64,000 bases of DNA. Source: Bacteroidales bacterium. GTDB taxonomy: Bacteria; Bacteroidota; Bacteroidia; Bacteroidales; CAIWKO01. Positions 16,893-46,765 of the stretch are shown here, in pieces. The stretch's first letter is position 1; each line of letters opens with the position of its first letter. The position numbers and the translations under genes were made by a program. The notes beneath the pieces are model-generated. The model was not told where the DNA came from and did not search any database. It was given only the letters and a program-made list of their open reading frames with translations. The stretch covers positions 1,754,922-1,818,921 of the forward strand of contig OY782882.1 in assembly GCA_963678485.1 (NCBI GenBank), written 5' to 3'.

Positions 16893-16909
16893 AGATCACC
16901 AATATACAA

Positions 16910-22652: not shown

Positions 22653-22669
22653 TTATATAGCTCTTTTTT

Positions 22670-24076: not shown

Positions 24077-24081
24077 GCTGT

Positions 24082-26888: not shown

Positions 26889-28354
26889 GTGGTATGGTCG
26901 TTATTGTTTATATACGTTTCCCCACGGGAATAATAGTAAATCGAGCAAAAATTTCCTGCGGTTGTTGGAATATCCTCATTCAAAATCTCAGTAATAATAC
27001 GACTTGCAGGCATCCTCATCACACGGCGAATAAAAAAATCAGTAAAAAAAGATTCAGGCAGACTACTTAAAACAGCTTCTGTTTTTTGCGAAATAATTTC
27101 CTGTTCTGTTGCTGAATGTGCAGCAAAGAAAGGGTCTGTAGAAAGATACGAAATCAATTGATCTTTAAATGCCTTTTCAGATATCAGATAATAATTGAGC
27201 CTCTTTTGAAAATATGCTGATTGTCCGGCCCAACTTTCCAATTGTTGTATTAGAATTTGAATTTGACTGAAAGGCCCGTCACTACTTGGCTTTTCCGTCG
27301 CCAGAAAACAATCTTTTAAATACCTTGCAATGCTTAATAGTTTTTCGTCTTCAAGTGGCCACAGCGCAACTCCAAAGGGTTTTGTAACAAGATTAAAATA
27401 AAGTTGGATCTTTTCTTTGACACAAAATTCAGCAAGTTCAGGAAGTGTTTGCCAGTTCATGTTCATAGGACATGCCGCGATGGTCAGATTTGTTCCTTTT
27501 CTCCGCGTGTAATCGATTAGATATTGCAGGTTTTCTTGTGTCCGCGCGAATGATGCATTAGTGCGGATATGCTCATACACCAAGGTGTCCATTGAATCCA
27601 GCGAAATATTAAATGAACAATTGCCTCTTTCGATGATATTCTTCGCCCTTTCGCCTAGGACTGTTGCATTCGTTGTAATAACAATGCTCATAGAGGGATT
27701 TAATGTCATCATCCGATCCCATATTCGATAGTATGATTCTATCATAAAGGGTTCACCACCGGAGAAAATTGCAAATTCCAGATCAGGAATCAGAAGCTCC
27801 AGCTCCTCGAAAAAGCGCTCATCGTAAATAACGCCCGTGGCCTTCTTTTCTTCAGGATTTGCCAGTCCGGAAGACAAACTACCATTACACATTATGCATT
27901 GCAAATTACAATGACTGTCGATACTAAAGTCCAGATAAACCGGCTTCAGCCGCTCTTCTATAGTAAAATGTTTATAATGCGTAGCGAGCACATTGCCAAA
28001 GTCTCTGTTCAACAAATGTGTTTTACAAAAATCACATTGTCCATCAAGATTATTTTCAAGAATTCTCTTTCTAAGATCTGTGTATGGCTTGCCATTCCAT
28101 ACATCAAGAATTCCTTTATCGCAAACAGAGTCCAGATGATAGTTTTGACAGCAAGGGGTAACACCTCCATTGCGATTGAAGCGCATACTCAGAAATGGTG
28201 CTTTGCAAATGGGCTCATTATCAGAAAGGCCGGCGTATTTGCGATAATCCAAAAGTATGTCTGTAGAAATGCCAGCGTTGCTTTTACGGCTGACAGTCCC
28301 ATAAACACCCGACTTCTTTCTAAAAGGATTCTTCATCTCGTTAATTTCAGACAA
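26885..28354 (-). CDS. radical SAM enzyme with N-terminal SPASM/twitch-like Cys module (A8)
   Basis: 489 aa. CKAPFLSMRFNRNGGVTPCC...DVW...QCDFC, then CNLQCIMC and GGEPFMI, with a helical tail. Confidence 0.85.
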   Translation of the reverse strand: MSEINEMKNPFRKKSGVYGTVSRKSNAGISTDILLDYRKYAGLSDNEPICKAPFLSMRFNRNGGVTPCCQNYHLDSVCDKGILDVWNGKPYTDLRKRILENNLDGQCDFCKTHLLNRDFGNVLATHYKHFTIEERLKPVYLDFSIDSHCNLQCIMCNGSLSSGLANPEEKKATGVIYDERFFEELELLIPDLEFAIFSGGEPFMIESYYRIWDRMMTLNPSMSIVITTNATVLGERAKNIIERGNCSFNISLDSMDTLVYEHIRTNASFARTQENLQYLIDYTRRKGTNLTIAACPMNMNWQTLPELAEFCVKEKIQLYFNLVTKPFGVALWPLEDEKLLSIARYLKDCFLATEKPSSDGPFSQIQILIQQLESWAGQSAYFQKRLNYYLISEKAFKDQLISYLSTDPFFAAHSATEQEIISQKTEAVLSSLPESFFTDFFIRRVMRMPASRIITEILNEDIPTTAGNFCSIYYYSRGETYINNNDHTT

Positions 28355-28360
28355 AATCTA

Positions 28361-29728
28361 TTAACTACGAAATCTCATTACAAATTTCTCAATATTATTT
28401 CTATACAATTCATTAATCACCATAAATGGAGGGAGCATCAATAGTTTCAACAATAACACTCTTCGCTTTTCCTGTTCCATGGCAGTTTCCATCAATGCAT
28501 TCAACGCAGTTACCGAAGATTTCAATAGACGTTCTCTTTCGGTGGCTTCAGTCATTTCATCATTAGTTATTGCCTCTTGAACCATTTGAAACAGCTTAGC
28601 TTCGAGGGCTTCCGTGCGCATGGCCTCAAGAGAATTTTGCGAAAAACTATCCCTGTCCTCACGCCATTGTTCCAAAGTACGAATCATTTCCTTATAGCGT
28701 ATTATGTTGAACCCTTTTATTTGGCTATCATTACTGAAGGAAAATGAACGTAAAAAATTCGCTTGAGCTTCAATCGCCTCAGGCTCCTGAAACCGAAGAC
28801 TGAGATCAAACGGCACCATAGCCAGCTTAGGATAGAGTTGTACACCTTGTGAATGGAAAAACTCGAAGAGTTCGGGTATTTCCATAATGTTCTCTTTCAT
28901 CACCACAAATTTAACAGAAAACAAACGCTGTTTCTGTTTCATAAAATCAATAAGATACCTAATATTGCTCATGGTTTCATCGAAAGAAGCATGTTTACGA
29001 ATACGTTCATAGGTATCTTTCTTAAGACTATCAATAGAAACAGTAAGCTGTATATTCAATGAGGACAAGAGGGCTTTAACTGTATCATTAAGAATAGTCC
29101 CATTGGTAGAAATGGTGATGTTCAATGCCGGATTAACTTTCTCAATTTCGCTCCATATCCAGTAATATTGTTCATTCAGGAAAGGCTCTCCACCGGTGAA
29201 ACTGGCAAACTTAAGTTTCGGTAAATAGGGCATCAATTGTTCGTGAAAGGACTCATCATAGGGATCCGGCCATGCAGCACCTTGTTCTCTGTTCTTACGA
29301 ATGGCTGATGAATACTCACCGCTGCACATGATACATTCGAGATTGCAGCGATTCGATGTTTGGAACTCAATGGAAGAAGGATATCCAGTTAATGATCCAG
29401 CGAGATAATCATACTTCTTACAGCCGGCCGTCTGGAAATTTCCGGCAACAATCTCATCACCACAAAACTGACAGCCTGGAGTGACTTCATAGTTTGAAAC
29501 ATTAGCTCTCAAAGCATCGATACGACGACCTTTCCATGCTTCATCAATACTCTGTTCCGGAAAGGTTCCGATTGAAAAACCCCTGTTATAATGACAAACC
29601 ATCATTTTGCCACTTTGAACGAATAAAAGATTTTGGAAGGGCGCATGACATAAGTGTTCGCATTGGGATTTTTCCCGCAAACCGTTGTATGCATAAAAGT
29701 CTTTTTTCTTTTTATTGGCGCCGAACAT
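28361..29728 (-). CDS. radical SAM enzyme with N-terminal SPASM/twitch-like Cys module (A9)
   Basis: 455 aa. CHAPFQNLLFVQSGKMMVC...EAW...GCQFC, then CNLECIMC and GGEPFLN, with a helical tail. Confidence 0.85.
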   Translation of the reverse strand: MFGANKKKKDFYAYNGLREKSQCEHLCHAPFQNLLFVQSGKMMVCHYNRGFSIGTFPEQSIDEAWKGRRIDALRANVSNYEVTPGCQFCGDEIVAGNFQTAGCKKYDYLAGSLTGYPSSIEFQTSNRCNLECIMCSGEYSSAIRKNREQGAAWPDPYDESFHEQLMPYLPKLKFASFTGGEPFLNEQYYWIWSEIEKVNPALNITISTNGTILNDTVKALLSSLNIQLTVSIDSLKKDTYERIRKHASFDETMSNIRYLIDFMKQKQRLFSVKFVVMKENIMEIPELFEFFHSQGVQLYPKLAMVPFDLSLRFQEPEAIEAQANFLRSFSFSNDSQIKGFNIIRYKEMIRTLEQWREDRDSFSQNSLEAMRTEALEAKLFQMVQEAITNDEMTEATERERLLKSSVTALNALMETAMEQEKRRVLLLKLLMLPPFMVINELYRNNIEKFVMRFRS

Positions 29729-29740: not shown

Positions 29741-30964
29741 CTACTTTTTCGTGCTTATCCAACGGAAAAAGGCCTTTTGGAGTTTGTTAAGATGTACTCC
29801 GTGTAAAATATCAGATCCCACAATCACATTGATTCTATTCCTGGGTGACAATCTGACTGAGGTCACATTTATGCCATTAATATTGTTCGGAAAAATAAGA
29901 TCAGGATTGCGTTGTAAGAGTTGTGGGTTTATTAGAAAGTATAACCAAATCCCTTTTTGATTTTGAGCAATCCTCAATCTGGAACCGCCTCTAATTCCCG
30001 GAAAGGTATGTGCGGGCCAGCGGTCATTTAATGGGAGTCTCTTATCGTTTATAACAATCATCGCCTCTTTTGATTCAATAGCATGAAGTATAAATGGAAA
30101 CTCGATAAATCCAACATAACCACTGTCAATAAAAACTGCACATTCTGCGTAATTGTATAGCTGTGTGAAGTCACCTTTAAAATCTGACCAAAGAGGAAAT
30201 CTCGAGAATACTGGAAAAATCAATTTAGATTTAGGAGGTAATTTTATAGTCAAAGAAGTATCAGATGGCAGGTCAATTAAAGTATTTTCAATAATGCGAT
30301 TATTATCCACTGACTCATAGATTTTCGCAAGATTCCTGCTATTCCCCATAAATCGACTCCAGATATTTTTCCTTAATCCCGGGCAAATATTTGGATGATT
30401 AACATACTTAGAGTGAGCGGCTAACGAATCAACACTTAATGGAGTCCCATAATCATCGGTGTAATAAATATGATATGTAGGATCCCAGACCTCCCAATGA
30501 TTTTTTACAAAAATCTCTGGAACAACGTGCCCTTCAAGATCAACCACTCTGGTGTCGTATCCCATTGCCCGCCAGATCCATGCGAGCGCCTGTGATTTAT
30601 TCCCACAGAAACCGGAACCAATAGCATTAAAAAAGGTTAATCCATCTTTGATGTCGCGTGCCCCAGCCAGTGGCTTTCGTTGCGACCATGTATAAGTCCC
30701 CATGAAAAGCCATGCTCGCTGATAGTCCTTATCAAGGGCTTTTGGAACGTCCATCTTACGAATAAACTGAATAAGCGAATCTTTCGAAAGAAAGAAAAGC
30801 TGATTTAAAAGACTTGAAATATCAATTTCATGGTCTGTATCATTTGAGATCATTCTTACAGCTTGAGGCTTTTCCCGGGAAATCTCCTTATATGAGATTT
30901 TTTGCCCTTCTGCAATATTAATCCAACAAACTAACCCTAACGCTATAACTAACCAAGCTCTCAT
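29741..30964 (-). CDS. secreted transglutaminase-like (Cys-His-Asp) protein
   Basis: 407 aa with a signal peptide (MRAWLVIALGLVCWINIAEGQ). The transglutaminase core pattern is GFCGNKSQALAWIWRAMGYDTRVVDLEGHVVPEIF...WEVWDP. Confidence 0.7.
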   Translation of the reverse strand: MRAWLVIALGLVCWINIAEGQKISYKEISREKPQAVRMISNDTDHEIDISSLLNQLFFLSKDSLIQFIRKMDVPKALDKDYQRAWLFMGTYTWSQRKPLAGARDIKDGLTFFNAIGSGFCGNKSQALAWIWRAMGYDTRVVDLEGHVVPEIFVKNHWEVWDPTYHIYYTDDYGTPLSVDSLAAHSKYVNHPNICPGLRKNIWSRFMGNSRNLAKIYESVDNNRIIENTLIDLPSDTSLTIKLPPKSKLIFPVFSRFPLWSDFKGDFTQLYNYAECAVFIDSGYVGFIEFPFILHAIESKEAMIVINDKRLPLNDRWPAHTFPGIRGGSRLRIAQNQKGIWLYFLINPQLLQRNPDLIFPNNINGINVTSVRLSPRNRINVIVGSDILHGVHLNKLQKAFFRWISTKK

Positions 30965-32721
30965 TTTTCAAATCTGGCAAACCACATTTCAAGCACTGCT
31001 AACTTCCACAGATGCCAAGGCATCTTTCCTTCAATAAATTTCCCAATAATTTCCGGATTAATAATTCCCTCCTCAACTAAACGGCTTTTATTGAATAACT
31101 GTCGGTAAAAATCCGGTCGATCATAAAACAAATCTGAACCTGTAAATCCTTGCTTTTTGCGAGCAAGAATATTATCGGGAATCTTTCCCTTTAATTCGTT
31201 GAACAGAATTTTCTTATATTGTTCTTTACTGAAATATAATGAACTCTCGTGCGAAAAAATTTCTTCGGCAATCCGGTGATCCAGAAATGCCGGACGCACT
31301 TCAAGTGAATTTGCCATGGAGGCCCTATCCATTTTTGGTAATATCAACTCAGGCAAAAATGTTCTGATATCAAGTAACTGAAGTGACTTTAATACAGGAA
31401 TATCCTTGTTCAAATTGTGCTTATACAGCCAAAATATATCTTCAGGAATTTTACTATGCAGATCCGAATGTAGTGTTTCTTTAAGTATCTCTTTCGAATA
31501 CAAACCCATAGCAGTATATCTGCAGTAAGTATCCAAGGCCATTTTATGAAAATCCGGTCGTTTGAAAAAGGACTTTTTTGTATCAGCAATTTGTTGAGCT
31601 ACTTCATAATACCAATTGTAGCCTCCGAGCACCTCATCGGCACCATCTCCTGATAAAACCACCTTATGTGTTCGAGCAGCTAATGAACAAACGCGAAAAG
31701 TGGGAATAATAGAAATATCGGCAATAGGTTCATCCCAGGCAGAAATGATCTGCTCAGAAAGAAATTCTTCTTCAGATATTAGTTCGGAAGTATTTGGGAT
31801 TTGAAGTGATTTGGCTACTTCGGCAGCAAATACATCCTCGCTTTGTGACCAATTCCTGAATCCGATGGAAAAGCTCATTGGAGATTTCCCCATCTCCTTC
31901 ATTTTTAATGCAATATAACTCGAATCATAGCCACCACTTAGAAATGCTCCAATTGCCTCCTCACCTATCATATGCTCACCCACAGAACGCTGCAACATTT
32001 CACCTATTTTTCGACTGAAATCAGCTTCGTTCTCCTTTTTCTCTGCTACGTTAATTGACCAATACTCAGAAATTGAGAACCCCAATTTACGGTCAATAAT
32101 CATGAATCGTGCTGGTGGAAGCTTATAAACATCTTCGTAGATTGTTTCAGGAGCAGGAATATATCTATAAATCAAATAATTAATTATTGCACTTCGATTT
32201 ATTTTGGGTTTATGAAATGCGACGATAGGCCTAAGCTCCGAAGAAAATATTATCGAATCCTTATTGACCTGGTAATAAAGAGGTTTTATTCCAAAACGAT
32301 CGCGAGCCAAAATAATAGACTCGTTCGTTTGATCAACAATGGCAATGGAAAACATACCATTAAGCTTCGGAAATATATCTACCCCCCATTCTTCATATCC
32401 ATGGAGAATAACTTCAGTATCGGAACTACTTGTGAAAATATGACCGGATTCGACAAGTAACTTCTTTAATTCCTTATAATTATAAATCTCACCATTACAA
32501 ACCAAATGAAGTTTCCCGTCTTCGTTGGCTATAGGTTGTTGAGCTCGCTCTGAGGTGTCGATAATTGCAAGGCGTCTGAACCCTAAGGCAAATTGCCGGT
32601 TCTCAGCTATCCAGCACTGCCCGTCATCCGGCCCACGGTGACTAAGTAAATTATTAAGACCCGTAAACGTATCTCTATCAATAGCTTTTTTCCCATCGAA
32701 CACACCGGTAATCCCGCACAT
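30961..32721 (-). CDS. asnB: asparagine synthetase (glutamine-hydrolysing) family amidotransferase
   Basis: 586 aa. N-terminal nucleophile MCGITGVF, RDRFGIKPLYY, and PP-loop AFLSGGYDSS. It overlaps the downstream gene by 4 nt. Confidence 0.85.
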   Translation of the reverse strand: MCGITGVFDGKKAIDRDTFTGLNNLLSHRGPDDGQCWIAENRQFALGFRRLAIIDTSERAQQPIANEDGKLHLVCNGEIYNYKELKKLLVESGHIFTSSSDTEVILHGYEEWGVDIFPKLNGMFSIAIVDQTNESIILARDRFGIKPLYYQVNKDSIIFSSELRPIVAFHKPKINRSAIINYLIYRYIPAPETIYEDVYKLPPARFMIIDRKLGFSISEYWSINVAEKKENEADFSRKIGEMLQRSVGEHMIGEEAIGAFLSGGYDSSYIALKMKEMGKSPMSFSIGFRNWSQSEDVFAAEVAKSLQIPNTSELISEEEFLSEQIISAWDEPIADISIIPTFRVCSLAARTHKVVLSGDGADEVLGGYNWYYEVAQQIADTKKSFFKRPDFHKMALDTYCRYTAMGLYSKEILKETLHSDLHSKIPEDIFWLYKHNLNKDIPVLKSLQLLDIRTFLPELILPKMDRASMANSLEVRPAFLDHRIAEEIFSHESSLYFSKEQYKKILFNELKGKIPDNILARKKQGFTGSDLFYDRPDFYRQLFNKSRLVEEGIINPEIIGKFIEGKMPWHLWKLAVLEMWFARFEK

Positions 32722-32760: not shown

Positions 32761-33714
32761 TTAATGTTTTGACTGGTACTGAGTCTTAAAATAATTCAAC
32801 TCCTCATTGGTGGCAAGCTTAGCGTACTTTTTATATGCTTTAAGGTGCGCCTTAAATTCTGATTTTCTAAGATTTTTAATGTCAGGCAAAGATAACAGAT
32901 GAAAATATTCCTTTTCAAGTGCCTTAAAAACATCCTTTACCAAATTTGAATAATATTCATCTTGCAGAAGGGTTTCAAGCATCTTTATATTATTGATCTT
33001 GAAATCTATAAGACTGTATTTCTTACTAAAACCTTCAGGATGGTCGTGGTACTCTGACCATACTTCATTGAAGTATTTGAATTTACTTTCTTTTAATAAC
33101 CAAAGATGTATCGCCCAACTAATTGATAATCGAAAAGCGCCAAACTTTTTAAAAAACAATTCCAGGTTTGCCTTTCTGAATAAAAGCGACGCGGTTGGAA
33201 TTATCTTTCTTGATAGCGCATCCCATGGAAAAAAATCGCCTGAATATGTATTGAATTGGGAATATGTTTTCCAATGATTATGAAAACGCATCAGATATTC
33301 ACTGCTTCCAATGCCTTCAGGTGCATCCGAAATGATTGCAGCATCATGGAAGCAACCAACATAATCAGGATTACTCTCTAAAAAATCCAACTGTTCCTGC
33401 AGTTTATTCTTATAAATCCAGCGATCATCAGCATCCAGCCAGCAAAGATATTTGCCTCTGGCTATCGCTGCAAATTTCTTGGCTTGTTGAACCGGACCCC
33501 CATTTTTCTCATTCGTAACAACTATGATATTGTCGTGCGATTTGCTCCAACGCTGAATGATCTCGATACTTGCATCTTCTGATGCATCATCCAGAACAAT
33601 AACTTCAACGTTATAAGTGGTTTGCTGACCGAAAACGCTGGCCAATGTATGCTCTATAAACTTCTCATGATTATGACAAAAAACCCCAACACTAACAAGC
33701 GGTAAATCAATCAT
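32761..33714 (-). CDS. glycosyltransferase family 2
   Basis: LVSVGVFCHNHEKFIEHTLASV...VEVIVLDDASEDAS fits the GT2 pattern. The ATG at 33714 (MIDLPLVSV) is preferred over the track start at 33741. It overlaps the PPTase stop by 8 nt. Confidence 0.8.
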   Translation of the reverse strand: MIDLPLVSVGVFCHNHEKFIEHTLASVFGQQTTYNVEVIVLDDASEDASIEIIQRWSKSHDNIIVVTNEKNGGPVQQAKKFAAIARGKYLCWLDADDRWIYKNKLQEQLDFLESNPDYVGCFHDAAIISDAPEGIGSSEYLMRFHNHWKTYSQFNTYSGDFFPWDALSRKIIPTASLLFRKANLELFFKKFGAFRLSISWAIHLWLLKESKFKYFNEVWSEYHDHPEGFSKKYSLIDFKINNIKMLETLLQDEYYSNLVKDVFKALEKEYFHLLSLPDIKNLRKSEFKAHLKAYKKYAKLATNEELNYFKTQYQSKH

Positions 33715-34336
33715 TATTATTTGATTTTCTAAGCATTGCAACTAACACACAGCGTCCGTCGTGACTTACACTCAAATCAGAATATGTCTGCGAACTATTA
33801 TTTGATAATACTGGATAACCGTACAATGGATGATCATGATACGTATTGTTCATTGATTCGTTTTCTTTACTGAATCCAATTTCTTCCAAACACTTACGCG
33901 AAAAAAAATAGTCATCGTAAGTAAATTCCGTGACGCGATAAAAAGCATGAAGCTCCACTTGATTCAACATTTCATGCTCAAGGCAGGCATATGCAGATAT
34001 CGAACGTTCAATCCTTGACAAACTGCACATTACATAACAGTAACTTTCTTTGTATTTTACAGTCAGCTGATATTTCTCGGCAGATCCTTCAGTCCCAATA
34101 GCAGTGATTGTTTGACACTGAAATAATGCCGGCGAAAAAGAGTTCAAATTCAAACACTTAAAAAATAACTTATAGGAACTTTCCTTAGCTGCCCAAAAGA
34201 TTGCAAATTTCTCGGTAGTATCTGCCAATGCACGTTCAATGGCAGTAAACGTCCTTAACTGATAGGTAAGTCGCTCGCTGGAGCCAAACAGCTTAAATAA
34301 TTCGAAATCAACTACATCACAGCCGATAAATGACAT
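33707..34336 (-). CDS. 4'-phosphopantetheinyl transferase family protein
   Basis: 209 aa. IGCDVVDFE and FWAAKESSYK match the PPTase motifs (G.D / W..KE..K). Confidence 0.65.
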   Translation of the reverse strand: MSFIGCDVVDFELFKLFGSSERLTYQLRTFTAIERALADTTEKFAIFWAAKESSYKLFFKCLNLNSFSPALFQCQTITAIGTEGSAEKYQLTVKYKESYCYVMCSLSRIERSISAYACLEHEMLNQVELHAFYRVTEFTYDDYFFSRKCLEEIGFSKENESMNNTYHDHPLYGYPVLSNNSSQTYSDLSVSHDGRCVLVAMLRKSNNND

Positions 34337-34340
34337 GATT

Positions 34341-34583
34341 TCAGGCGGTTTTGCTTTTTATTACTTCGAAAATATCCTTAACACATTTAATTTGCTCGAT
34401 ATCCTCATCGGTAATATTCACCTGAAAATCCTCTTCCATGTCAAGAATAATATCTACAATTCTGGCAGAATTGATTTTAAGGTCTTTAATCAATCCGAAT
34501 TCAGGCGTAAAGTTGGCCCATACATCAGGATTGGGAGTATATTTTTTTAATATGCCAAGAACTTTGTTTTCAATTGTTTCCAT
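34341..34583 (-). CDS. acyl carrier protein (stand-alone, locus-specific)
   Basis: 80 aa and acidic. The DLKINSARIVDI motif places a Ser at the ACP phosphopantetheine attachment position. Confidence 0.75.
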   Translation of the reverse strand: METIENKVLGILKKYTPNPDVWANFTPEFGLIKDLKINSARIVDIILDMEEDFQVNITDEDIEQIKCVKDIFEVIKSKTA

Positions 34584-34593
34584 ATGATAGAAA

Positions 34594-35871
34594 TTAACGT
34601 TTATATTCTTTGAGTACTAAACAAGAATTCACATCCCCGAAGCCAAAACTCGCCTTAATAATACATTTGGGATGATAATCAATGGTTGAATGGGGAATAG
34701 CCTCAGCTCGGATGGCGCTAAGGATTTCGCTATTTACGTCCTCACAATTCAGGTTTGGATGGATAAACCCCTGCTGCATCTCAATGAGTGCGGCGGCGGT
34801 TTCAATTGCTCCGGCTCCTCCGAGTAAATGGCCCGTCATTGATTTAAGGGAGTTGATATAAGGGAAATCGTTAAAACTCCGTCCAAGCGCAGTTTTCCAA
34901 TTGTTCACCTCTATTGCGTCTGCCTTTGTGGCTGTAAGATGGCCTGAGATAAGATCTATTTCCTCTGGTTTTATTGACGCGTTGTGCACAGCTCCTTCAA
35001 TACATTTTAATATGGCTTCGCTATTGGGGGCTGTCATTGTACCACCTTTGCGTTGACCGCCAGTATTCATGAAGCCTCCAGCGATTTCTGCGTAAATTGT
35101 CGCGCCGCGTAACTGTGCTTCCTCTAGTTCTTCAAGAAGTAAAACGGCGCCTCCGGCACCAGGAACAAATCCTGCAGCTGACTGACTCATTGGTCTGCTT
35201 GCTTCCTCCGGTCGGTCGTTAAAACCCTTAGAAAGCACGCGCATCAGGTCGAAAAGACACCAATAATTTGGAGAGTAACAATCAATTCCGCCAACAAGCA
35301 TACGCTTGGCCCGTCCTGCCTGTATATGCTGCGCCCCCATAATAATTGCATCAGTACCAGAAGCACAGGCATTCGAATTCCCAAAATTGGCGTTACCCAA
35401 GGCCAGAATTTTTGTAAGATGTGCGCTGGGAGCACTCACCATGGTTTGTTCAACCATGTCGGATCGCAATTTTTTTATTTGATTGCTGCTAACCATTGGA
35501 GCAATGCGATCACACAGCAAATCCACCGAACCTATCACAGTTCCCAGCACCGAACCACTATCGTAGTCAACTTCTGAATTATAAAGGTCGGGGATTTGTA
35601 AACCTGCATCCTTCCAGGCCTCAAGTCCGGCAATTAAACCATATTTTAAAAAACGGGAAGTATTTGGCAAATTAAAGCGCTCAAGAAAAGACTCAGACTC
35701 TGCATCCAATTCAGGAATTCCACCAACCTGACAACGCATACCCAGCGATTCAAGTTCTGGAATGAAGCGAATTCCGGATCTGCCTGTCCGAATTGCTTCA
35801 GCAAAAGCATTTTTCCCAAAGCCATTTGGGCTGATTACTCCAATACCTGTAACAACAACCCTTTTCATCAT
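34594..35871 (-). CDS. beta-ketoacyl-ACP synthase (KAS I/II type)
   Basis: 425 aa. RVVVTGIGVISPNG, active-site NACASGTDAI, and His motifs SGHLTATKA and SMTGHLLGGAGAIE. Confidence 0.9.
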   Translation of the reverse strand: MMKRVVVTGIGVISPNGFGKNAFAEAIRTGRSGIRFIPELESLGMRCQVGGIPELDAESESFLERFNLPNTSRFLKYGLIAGLEAWKDAGLQIPDLYNSEVDYDSGSVLGTVIGSVDLLCDRIAPMVSSNQIKKLRSDMVEQTMVSAPSAHLTKILALGNANFGNSNACASGTDAIIMGAQHIQAGRAKRMLVGGIDCYSPNYWCLFDLMRVLSKGFNDRPEEASRPMSQSAAGFVPGAGGAVLLLEELEEAQLRGATIYAEIAGGFMNTGGQRKGGTMTAPNSEAILKCIEGAVHNASIKPEEIDLISGHLTATKADAIEVNNWKTALGRSFNDFPYINSLKSMTGHLLGGAGAIETAAALIEMQQGFIHPNLNCEDVNSEILSAIRAEAIPHSTIDYHPKCIIKASFGFGDVNSCLVLKEYKR

Positions 35872-36305
35872 TTTTGTACTTTTGAAAGCATCAGCAAACC
35901 TTTGAGTGTAACATAAATAAGGCCTGCTTCATCCATCATTTTAATTGATGACTTTATTGTTTTATTTCTGAAGTAGATGAGCTCTCCAACAGTAATCATT
36001 GGCTTACCTACTGGGATTTTTTCGTGAAACTGAGCATTAATCTCGTGAAGGATTGGAATATAATCACCGGGATTCTCAACCAAAGCAAAAGCATGCCCCA
36101 CCAATCCAACTTGCCCCATAGCTTCAACAGCAATTACCCCGGGAATCACCTGCTGTTCGGCAAAATGTCCGTTATATACTGGATTATCACTGTGAAAGGT
36201 ATATTTCCCGGAGATTTTCCGCTCATCGATTTGAATAAATTCGTCGACCAGCAAAAAACTTTTGCTATAGGGCAGTATGCTAAGAAGCGCTGCAGGGGCT
36301 ATCAT
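35868..36305 (-). CDS. FabZ/FabA-like hotdog-fold dehydratase
   Basis: The YNGHFAEQQVIPGVIAVEAMGQ motif is present. The ATG at 36305 (MIAPAALL) is preferred, because the track TTG at 36320 falls inside a -7 box. It overlaps the KAS start by 4 nt. Confidence 0.7.
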   Translation of the reverse strand: MIAPAALLSILPYSKSFLLVDEFIQIDERKISGKYTFHSDNPVYNGHFAEQQVIPGVIAVEAMGQVGLVGHAFALVENPGDYIPILHEINAQFHEKIPVGKPMITVGELIYFRNKTIKSSIKMMDEAGLIYVTLKGLLMLSKVQK

Positions 36306-36317
36306 TACTTTTTTTTT

Positions 36318-36325
36318 CAAAGATA
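36318..36325 (-). promoter_or_regulatory. -7 box (TAtcTTTG on minus strand) heading the 21.5-kb minus-strand operon
   Basis: The plus strand reads caaagata, whose reverse complement is tatctttg, 13 nt upstream of the ATG at 36305. Confidence 0.45.
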
Positions 36326-36429
36326 ATTATAAAACACTTCATTTGTTCCAAACACATATAGAATATCAAACACCGATACGTATTCTCCGTCTCCCCCGAA
36401 ACAGTATTGAAAAAGCGCACGGAAATGTC

Positions 36430-36437
36430 TATTTTTG
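36430..36437 (+). promoter_or_regulatory. -7 box (TAttTTTG) for divergent SPASM rSAM gene
   Basis: Match to TAnnTTTG, 20 nt upstream of the ATG at 36458. Confidence 0.45.
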
Positions 36438-36457
36438 TATTCTACTAATCTGTTCGC

Positions 36458-37579
36458 ATGAAGCCGCGGTATTCGATATTATATTTTGAAACTACCCGCA
36501 GATGTAATCTTTCCTGCCCCTATTGCTCGTCGGGATCGCAGAAGCCGGAAGGAAGCTACCCTGCAGATATGACTACGCAACAGATTAAGGATCGCGTACT
36601 AAATCCTGCGCGAAAGCTGGGAACTGAACTGCTCGATTTATCCGGAGGAGAGTTTTTGCTTAGAGACGATGCTCTGGATTTGCTTGATTTTGCTAATAAA
36701 ACAGGATTCAGAATCGCCATGGCGACCAACGGTTTACTGCTTGATGAGGCGCAGGCCAGAGAAATCAAGAGGATAGTGGGAGATAACATCATCATTTCTT
36801 TTGGTATTAATTCTTTTGATGAGCTAAATCCTGAAACCAGAGAAACGAAAGATAGCTTCGTTTTGGAGCGTATTCAAATGCTGGAGCACCTTAATATTCG
36901 GGCAAACATCAGCATTACCATGGGACAATTCAACAAGACCAGCTTTAGCGACACCGTTGCGCGCATACGTGAATTGCATCTCCCATTTAATCGAATTCCC
37001 TTTGTTCCCAGGAATTGCGGTCGATCTGAACTGATGCCGGACAAAGCCTCAATGAGAGATTATTTTCATGAAGTACTGAGAAATAATTACAACGGACAAG
37101 TCAGTTACACGCCCTATTTCCTGCCTCAAGATGTTTATGAAAAAGTTTCAGGTCAGGATTTGAATCGCGAGAAAATTCCTCTTAATCCGCCGGTAGGATG
37201 CTGGGTCGGGGCATACTATGCCATAAATGCTGAAGGGGATGTTTCTCCCTGTCCGATGTTTCTCGACCAGGTTAAAGGTGGGAATGTGCTTGACACCGAC
37301 TTAAAAGAAATTTTATTTGAAAGTGCTCTTTTTAAAACCATCACTAATCGAGACGCCTTAAAAGGAAAATGTGGAAACTGCCGCTACACGCACACTTGCG
37401 GTGGATGTCGCGTAATGGCATATTTTCATACAGGCGATATGTATGCAGAAGATCCAATCTGTTTCATCGATGAACTCAGCGAAAGCGAGCTATCAGGAAT
37501 GGAAGCAGAAACAGTAAAAAGCTTTAGAAATTATGTAAGGATGGCGTATTTCGGAAAGATCTTCCTGCCACCAAAATAA
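36458..37579 (+). CDS. radical SAM/SPASM domain protein (canonical C-terminal SPASM)
   Basis: 373 aa. N-terminal CNLSCPYC and SGGEFLL. The C-terminal SPASM is CWVGAYYAINAEGDVSPCPMF...KCGNCRYTHTCGGC. Confidence 0.9.
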   Translation: MKPRYSILYFETTRRCNLSCPYCSSGSQKPEGSYPADMTTQQIKDRVLNPARKLGTELLDLSGGEFLLRDDALDLLDFANKTGFRIAMATNGLLLDEAQAREIKRIVGDNIIISFGINSFDELNPETRETKDSFVLERIQMLEHLNIRANISITMGQFNKTSFSDTVARIRELHLPFNRIPFVPRNCGRSELMPDKASMRDYFHEVLRNNYNGQVSYTPYFLPQDVYEKVSGQDLNREKIPLNPPVGCWVGAYYAINAEGDVSPCPMFLDQVKGGNVLDTDLKEILFESALFKTITNRDALKGKCGNCRYTHTCGGCRVMAYFHTGDMYAEDPICFIDELSESELSGMEAETVKSFRNYVRMAYFGKIFLPPK

Positions 37580-38147
37580 CATTTACAAACCACTAAGGTT
37601 TTTGTTGATACCAACAAAAGACAAAGCATCGCGGGAAGGTCTCTTACTCTTAAGGCATAACCAAAACAAAGCATGCATCCGTGTTTGCGGACCAAGACGG
37701 ATTGTTGATGAATAACAAATAGTTACAGGTGTTTTTTAGTACAACTAAAAAAACCAAATACTGAATTTTCACATTTAACAAGAGCACAACTAAACGTGTG
37801 GTTTATATTCTTTAATTTCCACCTTTTGCATGAACAAAAGGTGGAGCCAAAATTCTAGTCAAAGCAAAATGCTATCCCCCCGCTCTCGCCAATGGCCGCA
37901 AATCACGCAAGGTAGTGCGGATTTGCTTGCCATTCGCGATTCACAGTCCGCCCACGCCCGCTTGCTTTGACAGGCCCGCGCACACGCTGTGAATATTAGC
38001 ATTGCATAATTTCATTACTGTAAAAGAACCCCAAAGTACTAATGGTTTTGGTCTGATAGACTATTAAAACATGGGTGCTCAAAAAGATTGATAAGTGTAA
38101 TCAATATTGATGGCCAATATTACAAACAATAGCTGCAAAAGGAACTC

Positions 38148-38174
38148 ATTCGCGTTCATTCGTGGTATTCGTAG
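38148..38174 (+). repeat. solitary copy of the 3' hairpin arm of the 13961-14286 repeat family
   Basis: attcgcgttcattcgtggtattcgtag matches attcgtgtccattcgtgaaattcgtag at 23 of 27 positions, counted by eye. Confidence 0.6.
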
Positions 38175-38320
38175 TTGAAGAAAGGTTTTAAAATCTATTG
38201 TTTTCTGTGAATAGTATTCCTACTACTCAACTTTTCCACTTGATCCGTGTTTGCACTTTTGCGTTGCCTGTTTGGTTCGGATCGTAAAGTTTTATGTGAA
38301 AAAAATTCCTACAGCAAATA

Positions 38321-38914
38321 CTACAGTGTCCCAAAATCAGGGACATCTTCCCTGACCACCACAGCTGTTCCAATAAAAGCGTTGTTCCCTATACGTACGC
38401 CCGGGTGCACAACGACGTTGGTGCCGATAAAACTGTAATCGCCCACACTGCAAGGTCCGATGAGGGTCGTCATAGAAGCCACAGACACATAGTTGCCCAA
38501 CTTCACATCATGACCAATAACTGAGTTTGCGTGCAGGGTGCAGGATTTCCCGAATTCAATATTATGAGCAATCACTACTCCCGGTTGAACAATAATGGGT
38601 GCCTCAATACTGATTAGTGCACTAATGTATGACTTTGAAGAAATCAGCGGCGCCATCTTACCACCCCACTGTTCAATCTTAACTGCCATTTTTTCGCGCA
38701 TACGATTATTGCCAACAGTAGCAATGAAATTTGAACCATGCTGCTGAAAATGGGCACGAACGGCCTCTTCCGTTTTTAATACAGGGAATTTTTCATATAA
38801 AAAATCAGGAAGCGAGGGATTATCATCATAAAACACCACTGGCTTATCATAACCATCATAGATAAGCATATCCAGACTGTGTTTCCCCAAGTTGCCGGCA
38901 CCTGCGATTAACAT
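38321..38914 (-). CDS. sugar N/O-acetyltransferase, NeuD/PglD family (left-handed beta-helix)
   Basis: 197 aa. N-terminal MLIAGAGNLGKH Rossmann-like domain, followed by hexapeptide repeats (IGHDVKLGNYVSVA..IGTNVVVHPGVRIGNNAFIG). Confidence 0.8.
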   Translation of the reverse strand: MLIAGAGNLGKHSLDMLIYDGYDKPVVFYDDNPSLPDFLYEKFPVLKTEEAVRAHFQQHGSNFIATVGNNRMREKMAVKIEQWGGKMAPLISSKSYISALISIEAPIIVQPGVVIAHNIEFGKSCTLHANSVIGHDVKLGNYVSVASMTTLIGPCSVGDYSFIGTNVVVHPGVRIGNNAFIGTAVVVREDVPDFGTL

Positions 38915-38917
38915 AAG

Positions 38918-40015
38918 CTATTTTATTGGTTGAAGTTTTCCGCAAATATAATTCAAGTCCTCGTCCCACATGAATGTATGCAAAGGTAAGGTCAACACCT
39001 TATCACAAAAAGGCTGTGCTGCCACGATACCCTCTGCAATATATGCATGATCACGGAACATCGCATATGAATATAAGGGTCGCGGATAGTGTATCATCGT
39101 TTGTATGCCTCTCTTTTCAAGGAAAAGCTTAAGATCGTTTCGGTCTTTTGCAAGAACAACATACTTATGATTGTTATATATTTCGTTGGGAGAAATCAAT
39201 ACTTTGATCTGCTCTTTTCCATTAAGAGTCTTCGCATATAACTGCCCACACTTGATTCTGGCGCTAACGATTTCGTCGAGAACATCCAGTTGAGCATCTA
39301 ACAATTTTGCCTGAAGTGTGCTAATTCGGCTATTGTAGCCATGTTCAAAGTGATCCTGCCCGGCTTTTCCATGATACCTCAGCTTATGAATTTTCGCTGC
39401 AATTGCCGCATCATCAGTAAGTACGGCACCTCCAGAGCCAAATGCGTGAACTACTTTTGTGGGATCAAAACTTAAACAAGCAATGGTACCAAGACTACCT
39501 GCCACTGCCCCACCCCGCGAACTTCCCAGCGATTGCGCAGCATCTTCGATGTAGGGAATCTGATACGTTTCCACGAGCGCCTTCACTTTTTGCGGATCGG
39601 GCAGATTGCCATAAAGGTCCACACCTATGACGGCTTTCGGTTTATGTTGCTGCACCAATTGCTCAAGATGTGATAAGGAAATAAGCCCGGTTTCAGCATC
39701 AACATCTGCAAATACAGGAACTGCTCCAGCCCGCAACACTGGCGTTACCGTGGCAACAAAGGAAACAGCAGGAACAATGATTTTATCACCAACCTGAACG
39801 CCAAGAGCCACTAATGCAAAAAACAATGCATCGGTACAACTACCAACCGTGACAGCATAAGACCGATGACAGAGCATCGAAAGCTTTCGTTCAAAATCAG
39901 CGATTACAGCCTCATCAACATATTGACCTGAAGCAAGTGTTTCCAGTCCTATGGCGTCAAACCTGTCCTTATACATAGCATACAGGCGGTCGAGACGGTA
40001 AAAAGGGATGTTCAT
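38918..40015 (-). CDS. DegT/DnrJ/EryC1/StrS family sugar aminotransferase
   Basis: 365 aa. The PLP-Lys context is LSFDPTKVVHAFGSGGAVLT, and overall family motifs are present. Confidence 0.85.
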   Translation of the reverse strand: MNIPFYRLDRLYAMYKDRFDAIGLETLASGQYVDEAVIADFERKLSMLCHRSYAVTVGSCTDALFFALVALGVQVGDKIIVPAVSFVATVTPVLRAGAVPVFADVDAETGLISLSHLEQLVQQHKPKAVIGVDLYGNLPDPQKVKALVETYQIPYIEDAAQSLGSSRGGAVAGSLGTIACLSFDPTKVVHAFGSGGAVLTDDAAIAAKIHKLRYHGKAGQDHFEHGYNSRISTLQAKLLDAQLDVLDEIVSARIKCGQLYAKTLNGKEQIKVLISPNEIYNNHKYVVLAKDRNDLKLFLEKRGIQTMIHYPRPLYSYAMFRDHAYIAEGIVAAQPFCDKVLTLPLHTFMWDEDLNYICGKLQPIK

Positions 40016-40104: not shown

Positions 40105-41354
40105 CAGGGCAAACGCATCTAATTTTCCAGAACAGTAAGAAGATAGTCATTATCCCAGCCGGCTTTGAGTCTTTTACCCTTCACACTTCTTCTGGATGAT
40201 TTTTCTTTTTTAAGCAAATTAAGAGCAATGCGATTAAGCAGGGATGCATTGTGAGCAGCATTACCAGCTCGCTTTCTGTTTTTGTCTTCAAGAAAGGCTA
40301 CATCTAATACCCAGTGCAAACTATTCTCAATTCCCCAGTGAGAACGTATGCATCGACCAATAGACTCTGCGTCAGAATTAGCACTGGTAATATAATAGCG
40401 TGTTTCAGTTTCAGTTTTTTGTGTTGCTTTATGAAACCTCTCTGCTTGCACCCGTGCTATAGCATGTAATTTCGGCCAACGATGAGCCTTATCCATTAAG
40501 CTAAAGTCACTAATGATGCTACAAACCCTTGTTTCAACCCGACCATGACCATAATCGACATCTTCCCAAACATCGATTGGTTTAAGCATGCGAAATGAGT
40601 CTTGTATATCCTCAAATAATTCGGGCTGATTTGCTTTAACCGCCAACAAGTAATCTGCGCTTTTGGATACAATTTTATTTGCGATATCCACTTGACAGCC
40701 CATGGCATCAATAGTTACAATGCTTCCTGATATTAACAGCGCATCAAGCAACGCAGGGATAGCTGTTATCTCATTTGATTTGTCTTCAACCTGAATTTGA
40801 CCAAGCGTAATCTGGTTTTCTTCAACCCATGCACTCACCATATGAATCGCCGATTTGGGACCTTTGCCTCTGCTTCCGCGAATAGTCTTTCCATCAATGC
40901 TAATTACTTTTCCTGTAGTTTGTTTTACTATATGTCTCGTCCAGTCAAGAAAACAAATCTCAAATGCATCAGGATCTAGGCTTGAGAAAAATCGATTGAA
41001 AGTATCATGCGAAGGAACACCATTTGGCAACTCGAGTATAGTCTTCAGCCATTCGATTTTTGAATGTCCGAAATCCTCCATTTCATCCCAGGTATCTGCA
41101 CCACATAAAACAGATGCAATACTAATAAATACTATGTCTTCGGCTAAATGCAATTTTGTTCTGTCAATTCTATGATCTGGTAAAGATGCGAAAAAAGACA
41201 ATACGCTGGATTCTGCTTTCATTGTTTATGTTTTATATTGTTGTATATCAGACAAATATACAACTTTTGATTCAATAAACAATGATTAAGATATTAACAT
41301 TCAGCGTGTTAACAACTATTAGCCAGTAGGTAATTATTTAGATGCGTTTGCCCT
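40105..41354 (-). mobile_element. ISAs1-family insertion sequence (1250 bp) with 18-bp terminal inverted repeats
   Basis: The left end cagggcaaacgcatctaa (40105-40122) is the exact reverse complement of the right end ttagatgcgtttgccctg (41337-41354). It carries a single transposase ORF and is flanked by a 10-bp direct repeat. Confidence 0.85.
40119..41222 (-). CDS. ISAs1 family transposase (H-repeat-associated type)
   Basis: 367 aa. The N-terminus FFASLPDHRIDRTKLHLAEDIVFISIASVLCGADTWDEMEDFG is diagnostic of the family as I remember it, and a DDE-type C-terminal half follows. Confidence 0.85.
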   Translation of the reverse strand: MKAESSVLSFFASLPDHRIDRTKLHLAEDIVFISIASVLCGADTWDEMEDFGHSKIEWLKTILELPNGVPSHDTFNRFFSSLDPDAFEICFLDWTRHIVKQTTGKVISIDGKTIRGSRGKGPKSAIHMVSAWVEENQITLGQIQVEDKSNEITAIPALLDALLISGSIVTIDAMGCQVDIANKIVSKSADYLLAVKANQPELFEDIQDSFRMLKPIDVWEDVDYGHGRVETRVCSIISDFSLMDKAHRWPKLHAIARVQAERFHKATQKTETETRYYITSANSDAESIGRCIRSHWGIENSLHWVLDVAFLEDKNRKRAGNAAHNASLLNRIALNLLKKEKSSRRSVKGKRLKAGWDNDYLLTVLEN

Positions 41355-41427: not shown

Positions 41428-42777
41428 ATGTCTGTCGATAAGCCCAAAGAAAAAAGAGGCTGGAAAGAATTCCTGAAATTTCTGCTTCTTTTTATTGTTA
41501 TTCTTGCCTTGCTGGAAGGCTTGTGTTTCTTACTGATTAAGGGTCTTTTCCCCAACTATGAAAACTATCCATACAATCGCATAGTATCCGGATCAACGCT
41601 CTTTTATAACACTCCCGGTTACAATTACGGAAGCTCAACAATAAAAAATTCACCCACTGAAAAAGACCTTTGTATAGACTCGAATGGGTTTGTTTGCGGA
41701 CATCCCTTGTTGATGCATAAACCCAAAGAGGTTATACGTATTTTTCTTATCGGCGGATCAGCCTTGTTTGGCTCAGGACAGAGCAGACCTTATGATCAAC
41801 TTTTTGCCTATCCTTCAGGAAATTACTCATGGGAATCCAGTATTGCCGGTTGTCTTCAGCGAAAGCTGGATTCGCTGGCACCAAACAAGAAATTTGAAGT
41901 TATAAATGCTGCCTGCTCAGGCTTTACAACAAAGCAGGCGTTGGCATTATATATTGAAAATATTTGTCGTTATCAGCCTGACTACCTTATTGAAATGGAC
42001 GGCATGAACGATTTGGGAAACATGATCTCAGGAAGAGAAATCGACATGAACGAGATAATGTTCAGGAATTACTTTGAATTAGCTACACGAAATAAAAATT
42101 TGCTTGGATTGAACATGATAAAAATCGTTCAACTGCTGCAATCCCGCATGCTTGAAAAGCGCACGGAGAAGGTCTCTCAATCATTAATTGCGTCAAAGCT
42201 TTCGTACCATCCCGAAAAATTTACACTTGAGCAAGCGACCAACATCTATACTCCATTGAGCGAAAATTTCAGCGAATACTGCAGGCTAGTTAATCGCTAC
42301 GCTGCAGTAGTAAAAGCAGATTCGGTGAAATTTATTTACGTATTGCAACCCATGCTTAATCGCGTCAAAACCAATAAAACCCTAAGCCAAACTGAGCAGA
42401 AATTTGCAACCACGATTGACCCGATTACAGCACCCGAAGAACAAATAAACAGCTTCACCGTAGCAAATATCCACGGACAAAAGATGAGTTCATATGACAT
42501 TCTGCATTTGATGTTACTTTATGCCTTCGATCTTGGCTTTTCCGATTCGCTGAAAACCACAATTGAAAAGCAGTCTGCGCTATACATTGATGGAAATCAA
42601 GCCATACAGGGACTTGGAAACAATGTCGAATTCTACACCGATTACTGCCATTTAACACCGCAAGGAAATAAATTGATGGCCGGAACCATTGCATCTGCCA
42701 TACTATCTCAAATCCCACAACTATGGGCTAAAGAGGATTCTCTTGCCCGGGCTGAACGACCGATTAAAAAGAAATAA
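41428..42777 (+). CDS. membrane-anchored SGNH/GDSL-type hydrolase or acyl-esterase
   Basis: 449 aa with an N-terminal TM helix (FLLLFIVILALLEGLCFLLI). SGNH blocks are IFLIGGSALFGSG, DGMNDLGN and DYCHLTPQG. Confidence 0.6.
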   Translation: MSVDKPKEKRGWKEFLKFLLLFIVILALLEGLCFLLIKGLFPNYENYPYNRIVSGSTLFYNTPGYNYGSSTIKNSPTEKDLCIDSNGFVCGHPLLMHKPKEVIRIFLIGGSALFGSGQSRPYDQLFAYPSGNYSWESSIAGCLQRKLDSLAPNKKFEVINAACSGFTTKQALALYIENICRYQPDYLIEMDGMNDLGNMISGREIDMNEIMFRNYFELATRNKNLLGLNMIKIVQLLQSRMLEKRTEKVSQSLIASKLSYHPEKFTLEQATNIYTPLSENFSEYCRLVNRYAAVVKADSVKFIYVLQPMLNRVKTNKTLSQTEQKFATTIDPITAPEEQINSFTVANIHGQKMSSYDILHLMLLYAFDLGFSDSLKTTIEKQSALYIDGNQAIQGLGNNVEFYTDYCHLTPQGNKLMAGTIASAILSQIPQLWAKEDSLARAERPIKKK

Positions 42778-42811
42778 TGACAATCATTGCCATCACTGAT
42801 TACACAACTTA

Positions 42812-45076: not shown

Positions 45077-45154
45077 TCTATTGTTCCTGATTCTATTCAA
45101 AACTTGCCATCCTCATTACAAATCCCTAATTTTGTTATCCAAACCCGCCCAATA

Positions 45155-46576: not shown

Positions 46577-46765
46577 AAAGAAAGAACTATTGAATAATAA
46601 TTATAAATAATAAAAAGGGATGATGGATGCGGTTTCCGGTTTGAGTAACGAAAATCATTGCATCATTGCATGGTCCAGAATCCCCTTGATTAGCGCGTTG
46701 GACTAGGAAGAACATCAATCAGCATTAAAGACTCTTTAGAACAATTGACTTTCCATTAATAGAAA

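Follow-up and report, generated by a model that had tools for sequence, protein, structure and literature searches.

A conserved dehydratase, ketosynthase and acyl carrier protein cassette in Bacteroidota glycan loci that may supply acyl groups to amino sugars

A stretch of 64,000 nucleotides from a Bacteroidales bacterium (contig OY782882.1 of assembly GCA_963678485.1, positions 1,754,922 to 1,818,921), here called the window and numbered from its first letter, combines genes for glycan synthesis with numerous genes for radical S-adenosylmethionine (rSAM) enzymes. On the minus strand, the interval 33707-36305 holds four intact, tightly packed, co-directional open reading frames (ORFs). They encode, in order, a dehydratase (DH), a ketosynthase (KS), an acyl carrier protein (ACP) and a 4'-phosphopantetheinyl transferase (PPTase). 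We describe this four-gene module and its recurrence in other Bacteroidota, and discuss the possibility that it supplies an acyl group for the N-acylation of a 4-amino sugar.

The first gene (35868..36305, minus strand) encodes a FabZ-like hotdog 3-hydroxyacyl-ACP dehydratase of 145 amino acids (aa), read from the ATG at 36305. As called mechanically, the ORF runs on to a TTG at 36320 (150 aa), but the N-termini of orthologues better match the ATG. On the same strand follow genes for a β-ketoacyl-ACP synthase (KAS) of the KAS I/II type (34594..35871; 425 aa), an ACP whose phosphopantetheine serine lies in DLKINSARIVDI (34341..34583; 80 aa), and an AcpS-type PPTase with an internal insertion of ~90 aa (33707..34336; 209 aa). 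The DH and KS genes overlap by 4 bp, gaps of 10 bp and 4 bp separate KS from ACP and ACP from PPTase, and the PPTase gene overlaps a downstream family 2 glycosyltransferase (GT2) gene. This spacing is operon-like, and the module heads a run of 18 co-directional ORFs that extends from 36305 down to 14838 with no gap wider than 112 bp. An initial annotation, made from the letters of the window without database searches, had placed these four genes at the head of an 18-gene minus-strand unit, and both the unit and the four assignments are borne out by the ORFs, by family matches and by catalytic residues.

The module operon is separated from a divergently transcribed rSAM gene by an intergenic region of ~150 bp (36306..36457), which presumably contains the promoters. 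A TAnnTTTG-type sequence, TATCTTTG, lies just 5' of the DH start and is a consensus match only; a scan for promoters and terminators yielded sites no more numerous than in shuffled sequence. An Rfam scan of the entire window gave no match.

The DH is recognized by the Pfam FabA model (E = 1.8e-9) and by the NCBIfam FabZ model (5.9e-15), the latter at 55 bits against a cut-off of 113. Some of its orthologues also show weak Pfam matches to ApeI-like or ApeP-like dehydratases. The best match in the PDB is amxFabZ of K. stuttgartiensis (8AYD; 2.4e-9, 40.8 bits), with a Plasmodium FabZ barely behind and ordinary FabZs at 39.6 bits. Catalytic His and Glu residues are invariant among 11 aligned family members. 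At the position 21 residues after this His, the window DH has Leu, all 11 members have L, M, I or V, and E. coli FabZ has Gly. In amxFabZ, the Gly of canonical FabZ is replaced by Ile69, which juts into the tunnel for the acyl chain; the enzyme prefers C6-C8 substrates and takes only those carried on its own ACP (Dietl et al., PMC10139942). As aligned, the window DH carries a bulky tunnel residue of the amxFabZ type, and by analogy this hints at short chains of perhaps ~C4-C8.

Both the N- and C-terminal ketoacyl-synt domains are detected in the KS (5e-29 and 2e-24). Its scores are far below the equivalog cut-offs for fabF (274 bits against 494) and FabB (239 against 630), and other KS equivalog models likewise give matches below their cut-offs. 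The protein is ~31% identical to E. coli FabF and 46-61% identical to members of its own family, and by sequence it appears to belong to an uncurated clade of KAS I/II-type enzymes. The family conserves the Cys-His-His triad, as had been noted for the window KS and as the alignment confirms, along with a gating Phe and the signatures GHL(T/S)(A/S)T and GFGD(V/I)N.

The ACP matches the PP-binding domain (1.3e-3), NCBIfam ACP models (up to 4e-13, all below cut-off) and ACPs in the PDB (5e-8). Its modified serine was correctly described at the outset as lying in an NSA context in place of DSL (here INSA). The motif KINSA(R/N) is present in 105 of 105 ACP homologues, nearly all of them from Bacteroidales or Bacteroidota metagenome-assembled genomes (MAGs); the window protein has KINSAR.

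The PPTase barely passes the cut-off of the Pfam ACPS model (26.2 bits), and a single-sequence search of the PDB returned only noise. However, a profile built from eight orthologues matches AcpS structures (5xuk) at E = 9e-8, through both its N-terminal and its C-terminal segments. Because both halves match, the protein is best regarded as an AcpS-type enzyme into which ~90 aa have been inserted. It carries IGCD, FWAAKESSYK and SVSH, which correspond to the AcpS-type motifs GxD, (F/W)xxKE(S/A)xxK and SxSH, and the family is invariant at G5, D7, K51, E52 and S189/S191/H192. Family members are 187-214 aa long, with the insertion between the KE and SxSH motifs, rather than single domains of ~120 aa. 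Together with the KINSA(R/N) signature, this insertion-bearing AcpS is a useful marker for finding related sets of genes.

Ten independent, readable Bacteroidota loci were available for comparison: the window, L002, L003, L009, L011, L012, L013, L014, L015 and L017. Relatives of the KS at 49-61% identity are numerous. Genomic context was read for nine of them, and two more loci (L010 and L011) were found by way of a transglutaminase-like marker gene outside the module; L010 is a duplicate of L003 that breaks off within the PPTase gene. The DH-KS-ACP order is present in all 10 loci and the PPTase in nine. A gene for a PglD-like acyltransferase lies no more than ~3 kb upstream of the module in every one of the nine loci with upstream sequence, and a DegT-family aminotransferase gene in eight of them. 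An orthologue of the divergent rSAM gene, which encodes an enzyme with a SPASM domain (49-64% identity), occupies the same position in 9 of the 10 loci and is absent from L017. In that locus, the PglD-like and DH genes share 4 bp and are translationally coupled, so that PglD-like protein, DH, KS, ACP and PPTase are encoded in one operon.

Absence of the module from homologous loci had been proposed as grounds for giving up the idea of a specialized unit, and this objection falls because all 10 loci, including the independently found L011 with its full synteny, contain it. Judged by sequence conservation and gene order, the module appears to be a conserved, dedicated, non-housekeeping unit. It forms part of a larger Bacteroidota cassette consisting of DegT, the PglD-like protein, the SPASM rSAM enzyme, an optional FabL/FabG-like short-chain dehydrogenase/reductase (SDR), DH, KS, ACP and PPTase. 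Glycan or glycoconjugate loci harbour this cassette, which occurs in many anaerobic Bacteroidota MAGs. Literature searches found no description of it, nor of the arrays of rSAM enzymes with an N-terminal twitch domain (N-twitch rSAMs) described below.

In the window, the genes for the two sugar-modifying enzymes adjoin each other at 38321-40015 on the minus strand, separated from the module only by the divergent SPASM rSAM gene. The first (38321..38914) encodes a left-handed β-helix (LbH) N-acyltransferase of the PglD/PerB/VioB family, which scores 145.7 bits with the NeuD/PglB/VioB model (cut-off 160.8). In the PDB it matches PerB, VioB and PglD best, with the catalytic His kept in IGHDVKLG. 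These three are 4-amino-sugar N-acetyltransferases; LpxA and LpxD, which use acyl-ACP donors, share the fold but are more distantly related. The second (38918..40015) encodes a PLP-dependent, DegT-family sugar aminotransferase that is PseC/LegC-like (Pfam DegT 2.5e-84; below cut-off as PseC, at 206 bits, and as LegC, at 185 bits). The intervening gene (36458..37579, plus strand) encodes an AhbD/NirJ-like enzyme with Radical_SAM and SPASM domains and without an N-terminal peptide-recognition extension; its scores, 141 bits for AhbD and 120 bits for NirJ2, are also below cut-off.

Downstream, the GT2 gene that overlaps the PPTase gene (32761..33741, minus strand; Glycos_transf_2 9.8e-27) keeps its position in L002, L003, L011, L012 and L014. 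It is followed by a gene for an AsnB-type glutamine-dependent amidotransferase (30961..32721, minus strand), which scores 427 bits with asn_synth_AEB, above the cut-off of 267, and is syntenic in 8 of 10 loci. A private ACP and KS lie inside a glycan locus that, besides the DegT and PglD-like enzymes, encodes an ABC-2 exporter and a second glycosyltransferase, which has a DXD motif.

The convergent SPASM rSAM and PglD-like genes are separated by a gap of 740 bp (37580-38320), longer than its counterpart in L011 (~320 bp). This gap contains no ORF of more than 63 aa and no Rfam match, and a check for gene remnants or an encoded precursor peptide brought up nothing convincing. A gene for a DDE transposase (DDE_Tnp_1 and DDE_Tnp_1_assoc; 40119-41222, minus strand) lies directly upstream of the DegT gene, where L003/L004 and L012 have a sulfotransferase gene; it may part the DegT and PglD-like genes from their original promoter.

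Pfam scans of all large ORFs in the window detected no ketoreductase (KR), enoyl reductase (ER), malonyl-CoA:ACP transacylase (MCAT), KASIII or thioesterase. Searches by tblastn with the SDR, MCAT, KASIII, KR and PlsC proteins of homologous loci likewise found nothing in the window. The earlier statement that KR, ER, MCAT and thioesterase are missing therefore holds, with an extended SDR and a GDSL hydrolase as caveats. The extended SDR (6366-7370, minus strand) is the sole SDR in the window and is encoded outside the cluster, beside Lnt, the apolipoprotein N-acyltransferase; it resembles HpnA (139 bits) and has weak matches to thioester reductases and LegB. The GDSL hydrolase is unlikely to be the missing thioesterase, since its N-terminus is a membrane anchor and its constant companion is a GT-C-like protein of 14 transmembrane (TM) segments. 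The companion statement, that the locus lacks an acyltransferase, overlooked both the PglD-like enzyme encoded 2 kb upstream of the module and a GNAT-family protein encoded at 55455-56624.

Four of the 10 related cassettes have an SDR gene of their own, located between the SPASM rSAM and DH genes (L009, 8763-9566; L012, 8706-9497; L014, 8763-9566; L015, 8784-9569). The encoded proteins have an unusual glycine motif, GG(S/T)(S/G)GFGLA, and the three that were scanned (L012, L014, L015) score below the cut-offs for both FabL and FabG. The reductive steps encoded in cis thus vary among loci, with at least one of them necessarily left to housekeeping enzymes.

These observations suggest a pathway in which the insertion-bearing PPTase would convert the divergent KINSAR ACP into its holo form, and the Cys-His-His KS would prime and extend a chain from malonyl units. 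We infer that the housekeeping enzyme FabD loads these units in trans. For the window module, ketoreduction would also be carried out in trans, by FabG, with FabI available in the same manner. The DH would then yield a 2-enoyl-ACP, its tunnel Leu presumably favouring short chains of ~C4-C8. The PglD/PerB/VioB-like transferase could then move a hydroxyacyl, enoyl or saturated acyl group from the ACP to a nucleotide sugar, at the 4-amino group installed by the PseC/LegC-like aminotransferase. The N-acylated sugar that results would become part of a glycan assembled by the downstream GT2, the AsnB-type protein and further enzymes. With a confidence that we would put no higher than moderate, we take this to be the role of the module: to supply an acyl group, possibly short, on a private ACP for 4-amino-sugar N-acylation by the PglD-like enzyme. 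The initial annotation had offered two roles for an ACP-tethered chain, a scaffold modified by the rSAM enzymes or an acyl decoration of the glycan. Synteny with the PglD-like and DegT genes, the translational coupling of the PglD-like gene to the DH gene in L017 and a precedent in Flavobacterium psychrophilum (see below) speak for the decoration, and the scaffold gains little from the comparison.

Several points weigh against a role in amino-sugar acylation. The F. psychrophilum precedent is itself only predicted. Acetyl-CoA could simply be the donor for the PglD-like enzyme, whose place next to the module might stem from membership of one pathway and not from direct transfer. Given that KR, ER, MCAT and KASIII are all absent from the window, the model depends on cross-talk with housekeeping fatty acid synthesis (FAS). 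In 9 of 10 loci, no 4,6-dehydratase gene adjoins the DegT gene to define the amino-sugar precursor. As for chain length, the KS position equivalent to Ile108 of FabF is occupied by I, F, V or A and carries no signal, and the cassette SDRs, scanned in L012, L014 and L015, score better as FabL (119-143 bits) than as FabG (81-99 bits), as longer saturated chains would allow. The KS served as query for most of the loci, a procedure that biases the co-occurrence count; only L010 and L011 were found independently. Finally, the SPASM rSAM enzyme is nearly as conserved as the module itself, yet the model does not explain it. This enzyme could tailor the acyl chain, or it could oxidize a sugar to the keto form that DegT needs, in the manner of BtrN.

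The wider locus contains 17 rSAM genes. Most encode N-twitch rSAMs (NF033640, 140-164 bits against a cut-off of 170), and six encode B12-binding enzymes. The N-twitch rSAM genes comprise nine in tandem (15714-29728, minus strand) and one more at 62386-63702 (plus strand), and these paralogues are 23-33% identical. Each has a collinear, one-to-one orthologue in L011 (53-65% identity), which indicates an old array of distinct enzymes. In a profile of all ten, the twitch domain best matches BtrN (1.6e-12), and the cores are SkfB-, viperin- and MoaA-like. BtrN is an aminocyclitol dehydrogenase. By sequence, these similarities lean toward sugar or nucleotide substrates over lipids. The six B12-rSAM genes form three groups (45104-49782, plus strand; 51613-54502 and 56647-58173, both minus strand), and B12-rSAM genes also adjoin the cassette in L003, L009 and L014. 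Between two of the groups lies an IS200-like fragment with a toxin-antitoxin pair (Gp49/HigB-like and helix-turn-helix, HigA-like) at 49876-51445 (minus strand).

The marker that led to L010 and L011 is a 407-aa protein with a signal peptide (29741-30964, minus strand). It has no Pfam or NCBIfam match, and Cys120, His146 and Asp161 look transglutaminase-like by eye. The protein is rare, with a single locus recovered from all GTDB species genomes (L010) and a single one from the JGI metagenomes (L011). At 41428-45076 (plus strand), the membrane-anchored GDSL/SGNH hydrolase (41428-42777) precedes a 754-aa protein with ~14 TM segments, orthologues of which have weak PMT_2 (GT-C) matches. The pair is kept in L004, related genes are present in L012, L014 and L017, and its composition suggests periplasmic modification of a glycan. 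A further minus-strand operon (54556-61947) encodes a UbiA-family prenyltransferase, the 389-aa GNAT protein, a second AsnB-like protein, a Wzm/Wzt-like ABC-2 exporter and a B12-rSAM enzyme, and points to a polyprenol-linked, ABC-exported glycoconjugate.

The abundance of rSAM genes raises the alternative that the ACP-tethered chain is itself the substrate of rSAM chemistry, such as desaturation, decarboxylation, cyclization or C-methylation, catalysed by the adjacent SPASM enzyme and possibly by N-twitch or B12-rSAM enzymes. The divergent pairing of the SPASM rSAM gene with the module in all loci but one, at a level of conservation equal to that of the KS, would be expected from such a role, and the DH has its bulky tunnel residue in common with its top PDB match, amxFabZ. 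However, that match is no stronger than those to ordinary FabZs. Pfam and NCBIfam scans of the window detected no second FabF or partner resembling a chain-length factor (CLF), and no desaturase. The B12-rSAM genes lie in separate operons at least 9 kb away, and the N-twitch enzymes resemble proteins that act on sugars or nucleotides, with a BtrN-like twitch and viperin- and MoaA-like cores. Moreover, L013 and L015 keep the cassette while the 10-kb flanks read contain no N-twitch rSAM array (one cut N-twitch gene lies at the edge of L015).

L017 can be read in two ways in this respect. A gene for a PhyH-family Fe(II)/2-oxoglutarate dioxygenase (12227-13123) directly follows the PPTase gene and replaces that for the SPASM rSAM enzyme, perhaps an aerobic-for-anaerobic enzyme swap, and a different, MoaA/NirJ-like rSAM is encoded upstream of DegT (2907-3986). 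The PhyH family includes acyl-thioester hydroxylases, in keeping with a tailored chain, but PhyH-family enzymes act on aminoglycoside sugars too, and the swap is therefore ambiguous. Overall, we consider it unlikely that the tethered chain is an rSAM substrate. A more specific version, in which the SPASM enzyme performs, for example, an anaerobic desaturation, hydroxylation, decarboxylation or C-C bond formation on the chain, which is then grafted onto a glycan that the 16 further rSAM enzymes remodel, is doubtful to a slightly greater degree. If it were true, the product of the cassette would be an rSAM-tailored ketoacyl group. Possible examples are so far limited to jawsamycin and the ladderanes, the latter proposed but unproven, and a 2026 review names no other proposed rSAM-modified ketoacyl lipids (PMC13459092).

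The module might instead make a long fatty acyl chain that anchors a glycolipid, for example on an N-acylated amino sugar comparable to the product of the LpxD step in lipid A synthesis. The FabL-like character of the cassette SDRs, best scored as an enoyl reductase, agrees with this, as does the use of long acyl-ACPs by the LbH acyltransferases LpxA and LpxD. Relatives of the KS in Syntrophales belong to full FAS-like sets with a PlsC-type acyltransferase beside Mla or Arn outer-membrane lipid genes, and the window encodes UbiA, an ABC-2 exporter and the 14-TM GT-C-like protein. On the other hand, the bulky tunnel residue of the DH suggests short chains, the PglD-like enzyme is closest to the small-acyl transferases PerB, VioB and PglD and not to LpxD, and ABC-2 export of the Wzm/Wzt type is, in the company of several glycosyltransferases, in line with a polysaccharide. 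We therefore judge a lipid anchor to be rather improbable.

It is very improbable that the genes are simply the housekeeping fabZ, fabF, acpP and acpS of the organism, which happen to adjoin a polysaccharide locus. No other fab genes occur within the 64-kb window, as would be expected if these were the only copies, but all four proteins score far below NCBIfam equivalog cut-offs (for example, at most 49 bits against ~70 for the ACP, and 27.7 against 45 with pantethn_trn), the serine of the ACP lies in KINSAR and not in the near-universal DSLD, and the KS is distant from E. coli FabF. No fabD, fabG, fabH or acc gene lies alongside the module, and the cassette recurs only inside glycan and rSAM loci. 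Housekeeping FabZ of Bacteroidota is normally fused to LpxC, and the DH scores only 54 bits with the LpxC-FabZ model NF009667, against a cut-off of 465.

Hardly more credible is a module for an aryl-polyene or flexirubin-type pigment. The weak ApeI- and ApeP-like matches of orthologous dehydratases and the absence of an enoyl reductase from the window are in keeping with a pigment, but the window encodes a single KS and no CLF, second ACP, adenylating or aryl-loading enzyme, LolA/MMPL-type exporter or DarA/DarB, and the surroundings consist of sugar-modifying genes.

Supply of an acyl group to a 4-amino sugar, the role that we favour, would bear on the biology of surface glycans. Non-acetyl N-acyl groups on surface sugars shape antigenicity, and how they are made is largely inferred. 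The cassette appears to be a distinct, recurrent and uncharacterized solution, built from a KAS I/II-type KS, a FabZ-like DH, a KINSAR ACP and an insertion-bearing AcpS. It bears on whether PglD-family enzymes can take acyl-ACP donors, and it offers a tractable way into the stranger surrounding locus with its many rSAM genes.

Among characterized or proposed systems, the module shares folds and catalytic residues with housekeeping type II FAS. It differs in its scores below equivalog cut-offs, in a KINSAR in place of the D-S-L(D) context of the ACP, in the PPTase insertion, in the absence of fabD, fabG, fabH and fabI alongside, and in its glycan and rSAM context. None of the hallmarks of aryl-polyene clusters, namely a KS with a CLF, two ACPs, an aryl-loading enzyme and LolA/MMPL export, is present in the window. 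The butirosin pathway uses the ACP BtrI, the transferase BtrH, the rSAM dehydrogenase BtrN and the DegT-type aminotransferase BtrS. Like the present locus, it combines a twitch-domain rSAM and a DegT-family aminotransferase with an ACP-borne acyl group that is amidated onto an amino sugar or aminocyclitol. However, the butirosin acyl group is made from glutamate by an ATP-grasp ligase and a decarboxylase, with no KS, and BtrH is not a left-handed β-helix protein; the resemblance to BtrN in the window is found in the N-twitch rSAMs, not in the SPASM rSAM.

A candidate ladderane cluster of anammox bacteria encodes amxACP, amxFabZ, FabF2/FabF, an enzyme resembling phytoene desaturase and a B12-rSAM (PMC10139942). 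The initial annotation had drawn an analogy with ladderane pathways, and in both a FabZ-type enzyme and the ACP dedicated to it are indeed encoded next to rSAM genes; a bulky residue at the Ile69 tunnel position is also common to the two. The restriction of amxFabZ to substrates on its own ACP also supports the idea of a private DH/ACP pair. Beyond the tunnel residue, little of the analogy survives: the module has one KS and no KS/CLF-like pair, no desaturase-like gene is present, the B12-rSAM genes lie outside the module operon, the host is a member of the Bacteroidota and not an anammox bacterium, the context is sugar modification, and the DH is no nearer to amxFabZ than to ordinary FabZs.

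The nearest relatives outside Bacteroidota are found in Syntrophales/Desulfobacterota (L006-L008 and L016; KS 51-54% identical). These sets have the same DH-KS-ACP order, an ACP with KVNSAR and a PPTase at the end. In contrast to the module described here, they are complete and self-sufficient, comprising MCAT, acyl-CoA dehydrogenase, KASIII, FabA-like protein, KR, DH, KS, ACP, PlsC-like protein and PPTase. They have a PlsC-like acyltransferase of the glycerolipid type, with neither a PglD-like enzyme nor a SPASM rSAM, and they adjoin Mla genes (L006) or Arn-like genes (L016, the edge of which encodes an ArnB-like DegT). We found no description of this private FAS-like set. Here the ACP gene precedes one for a PlsC-type acyltransferase, and the acyltransferase encoded close to the module therefore differs between kinds of locus, as expected if it is this enzyme that sets the destination of the acyl chain.

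In gene content, the cassette is most readily set beside wfpC-G of F. psychrophilum. The O-polysaccharide of this organism contains Qui2NAc4N that bears a 3,5-dihydroxyhexanoyl group, and the products of wfpC-G are an ACP, a FabG, a pair of KASIII enzymes and a homologue of PglD; the acyl group is predicted to be built on the ACP and moved by the PglD homologue to UDP-Qui2NAc4NH2 (PMC6519341). Both systems belong to Bacteroidota, both place a private ACP and KS in a glycan locus beside a PglD homologue and a bacillosamine-type aminotransferase pathway, and, compared by gene content, both would follow the same proposed logic, in which an acyl group from a dedicated ACP is transferred to a 4-amino sugar. 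The wfp set, the function of which is predicted only, relies on a FabG-like KR and two KASIII enzymes of the FabH-like kind, and it lacks a dehydratase, a PPTase and an rSAM. The window module combines a FabZ-like DH and a single KS of the KAS I/II type with a PPTase of its own and a SPASM rSAM as its partner; neither a KASIII nor a FabG-type ketoreductase is encoded beside it, and the window has no KR. The logic is thus already known as a predicted kind, and the set of enzymes that would carry it out here is new.

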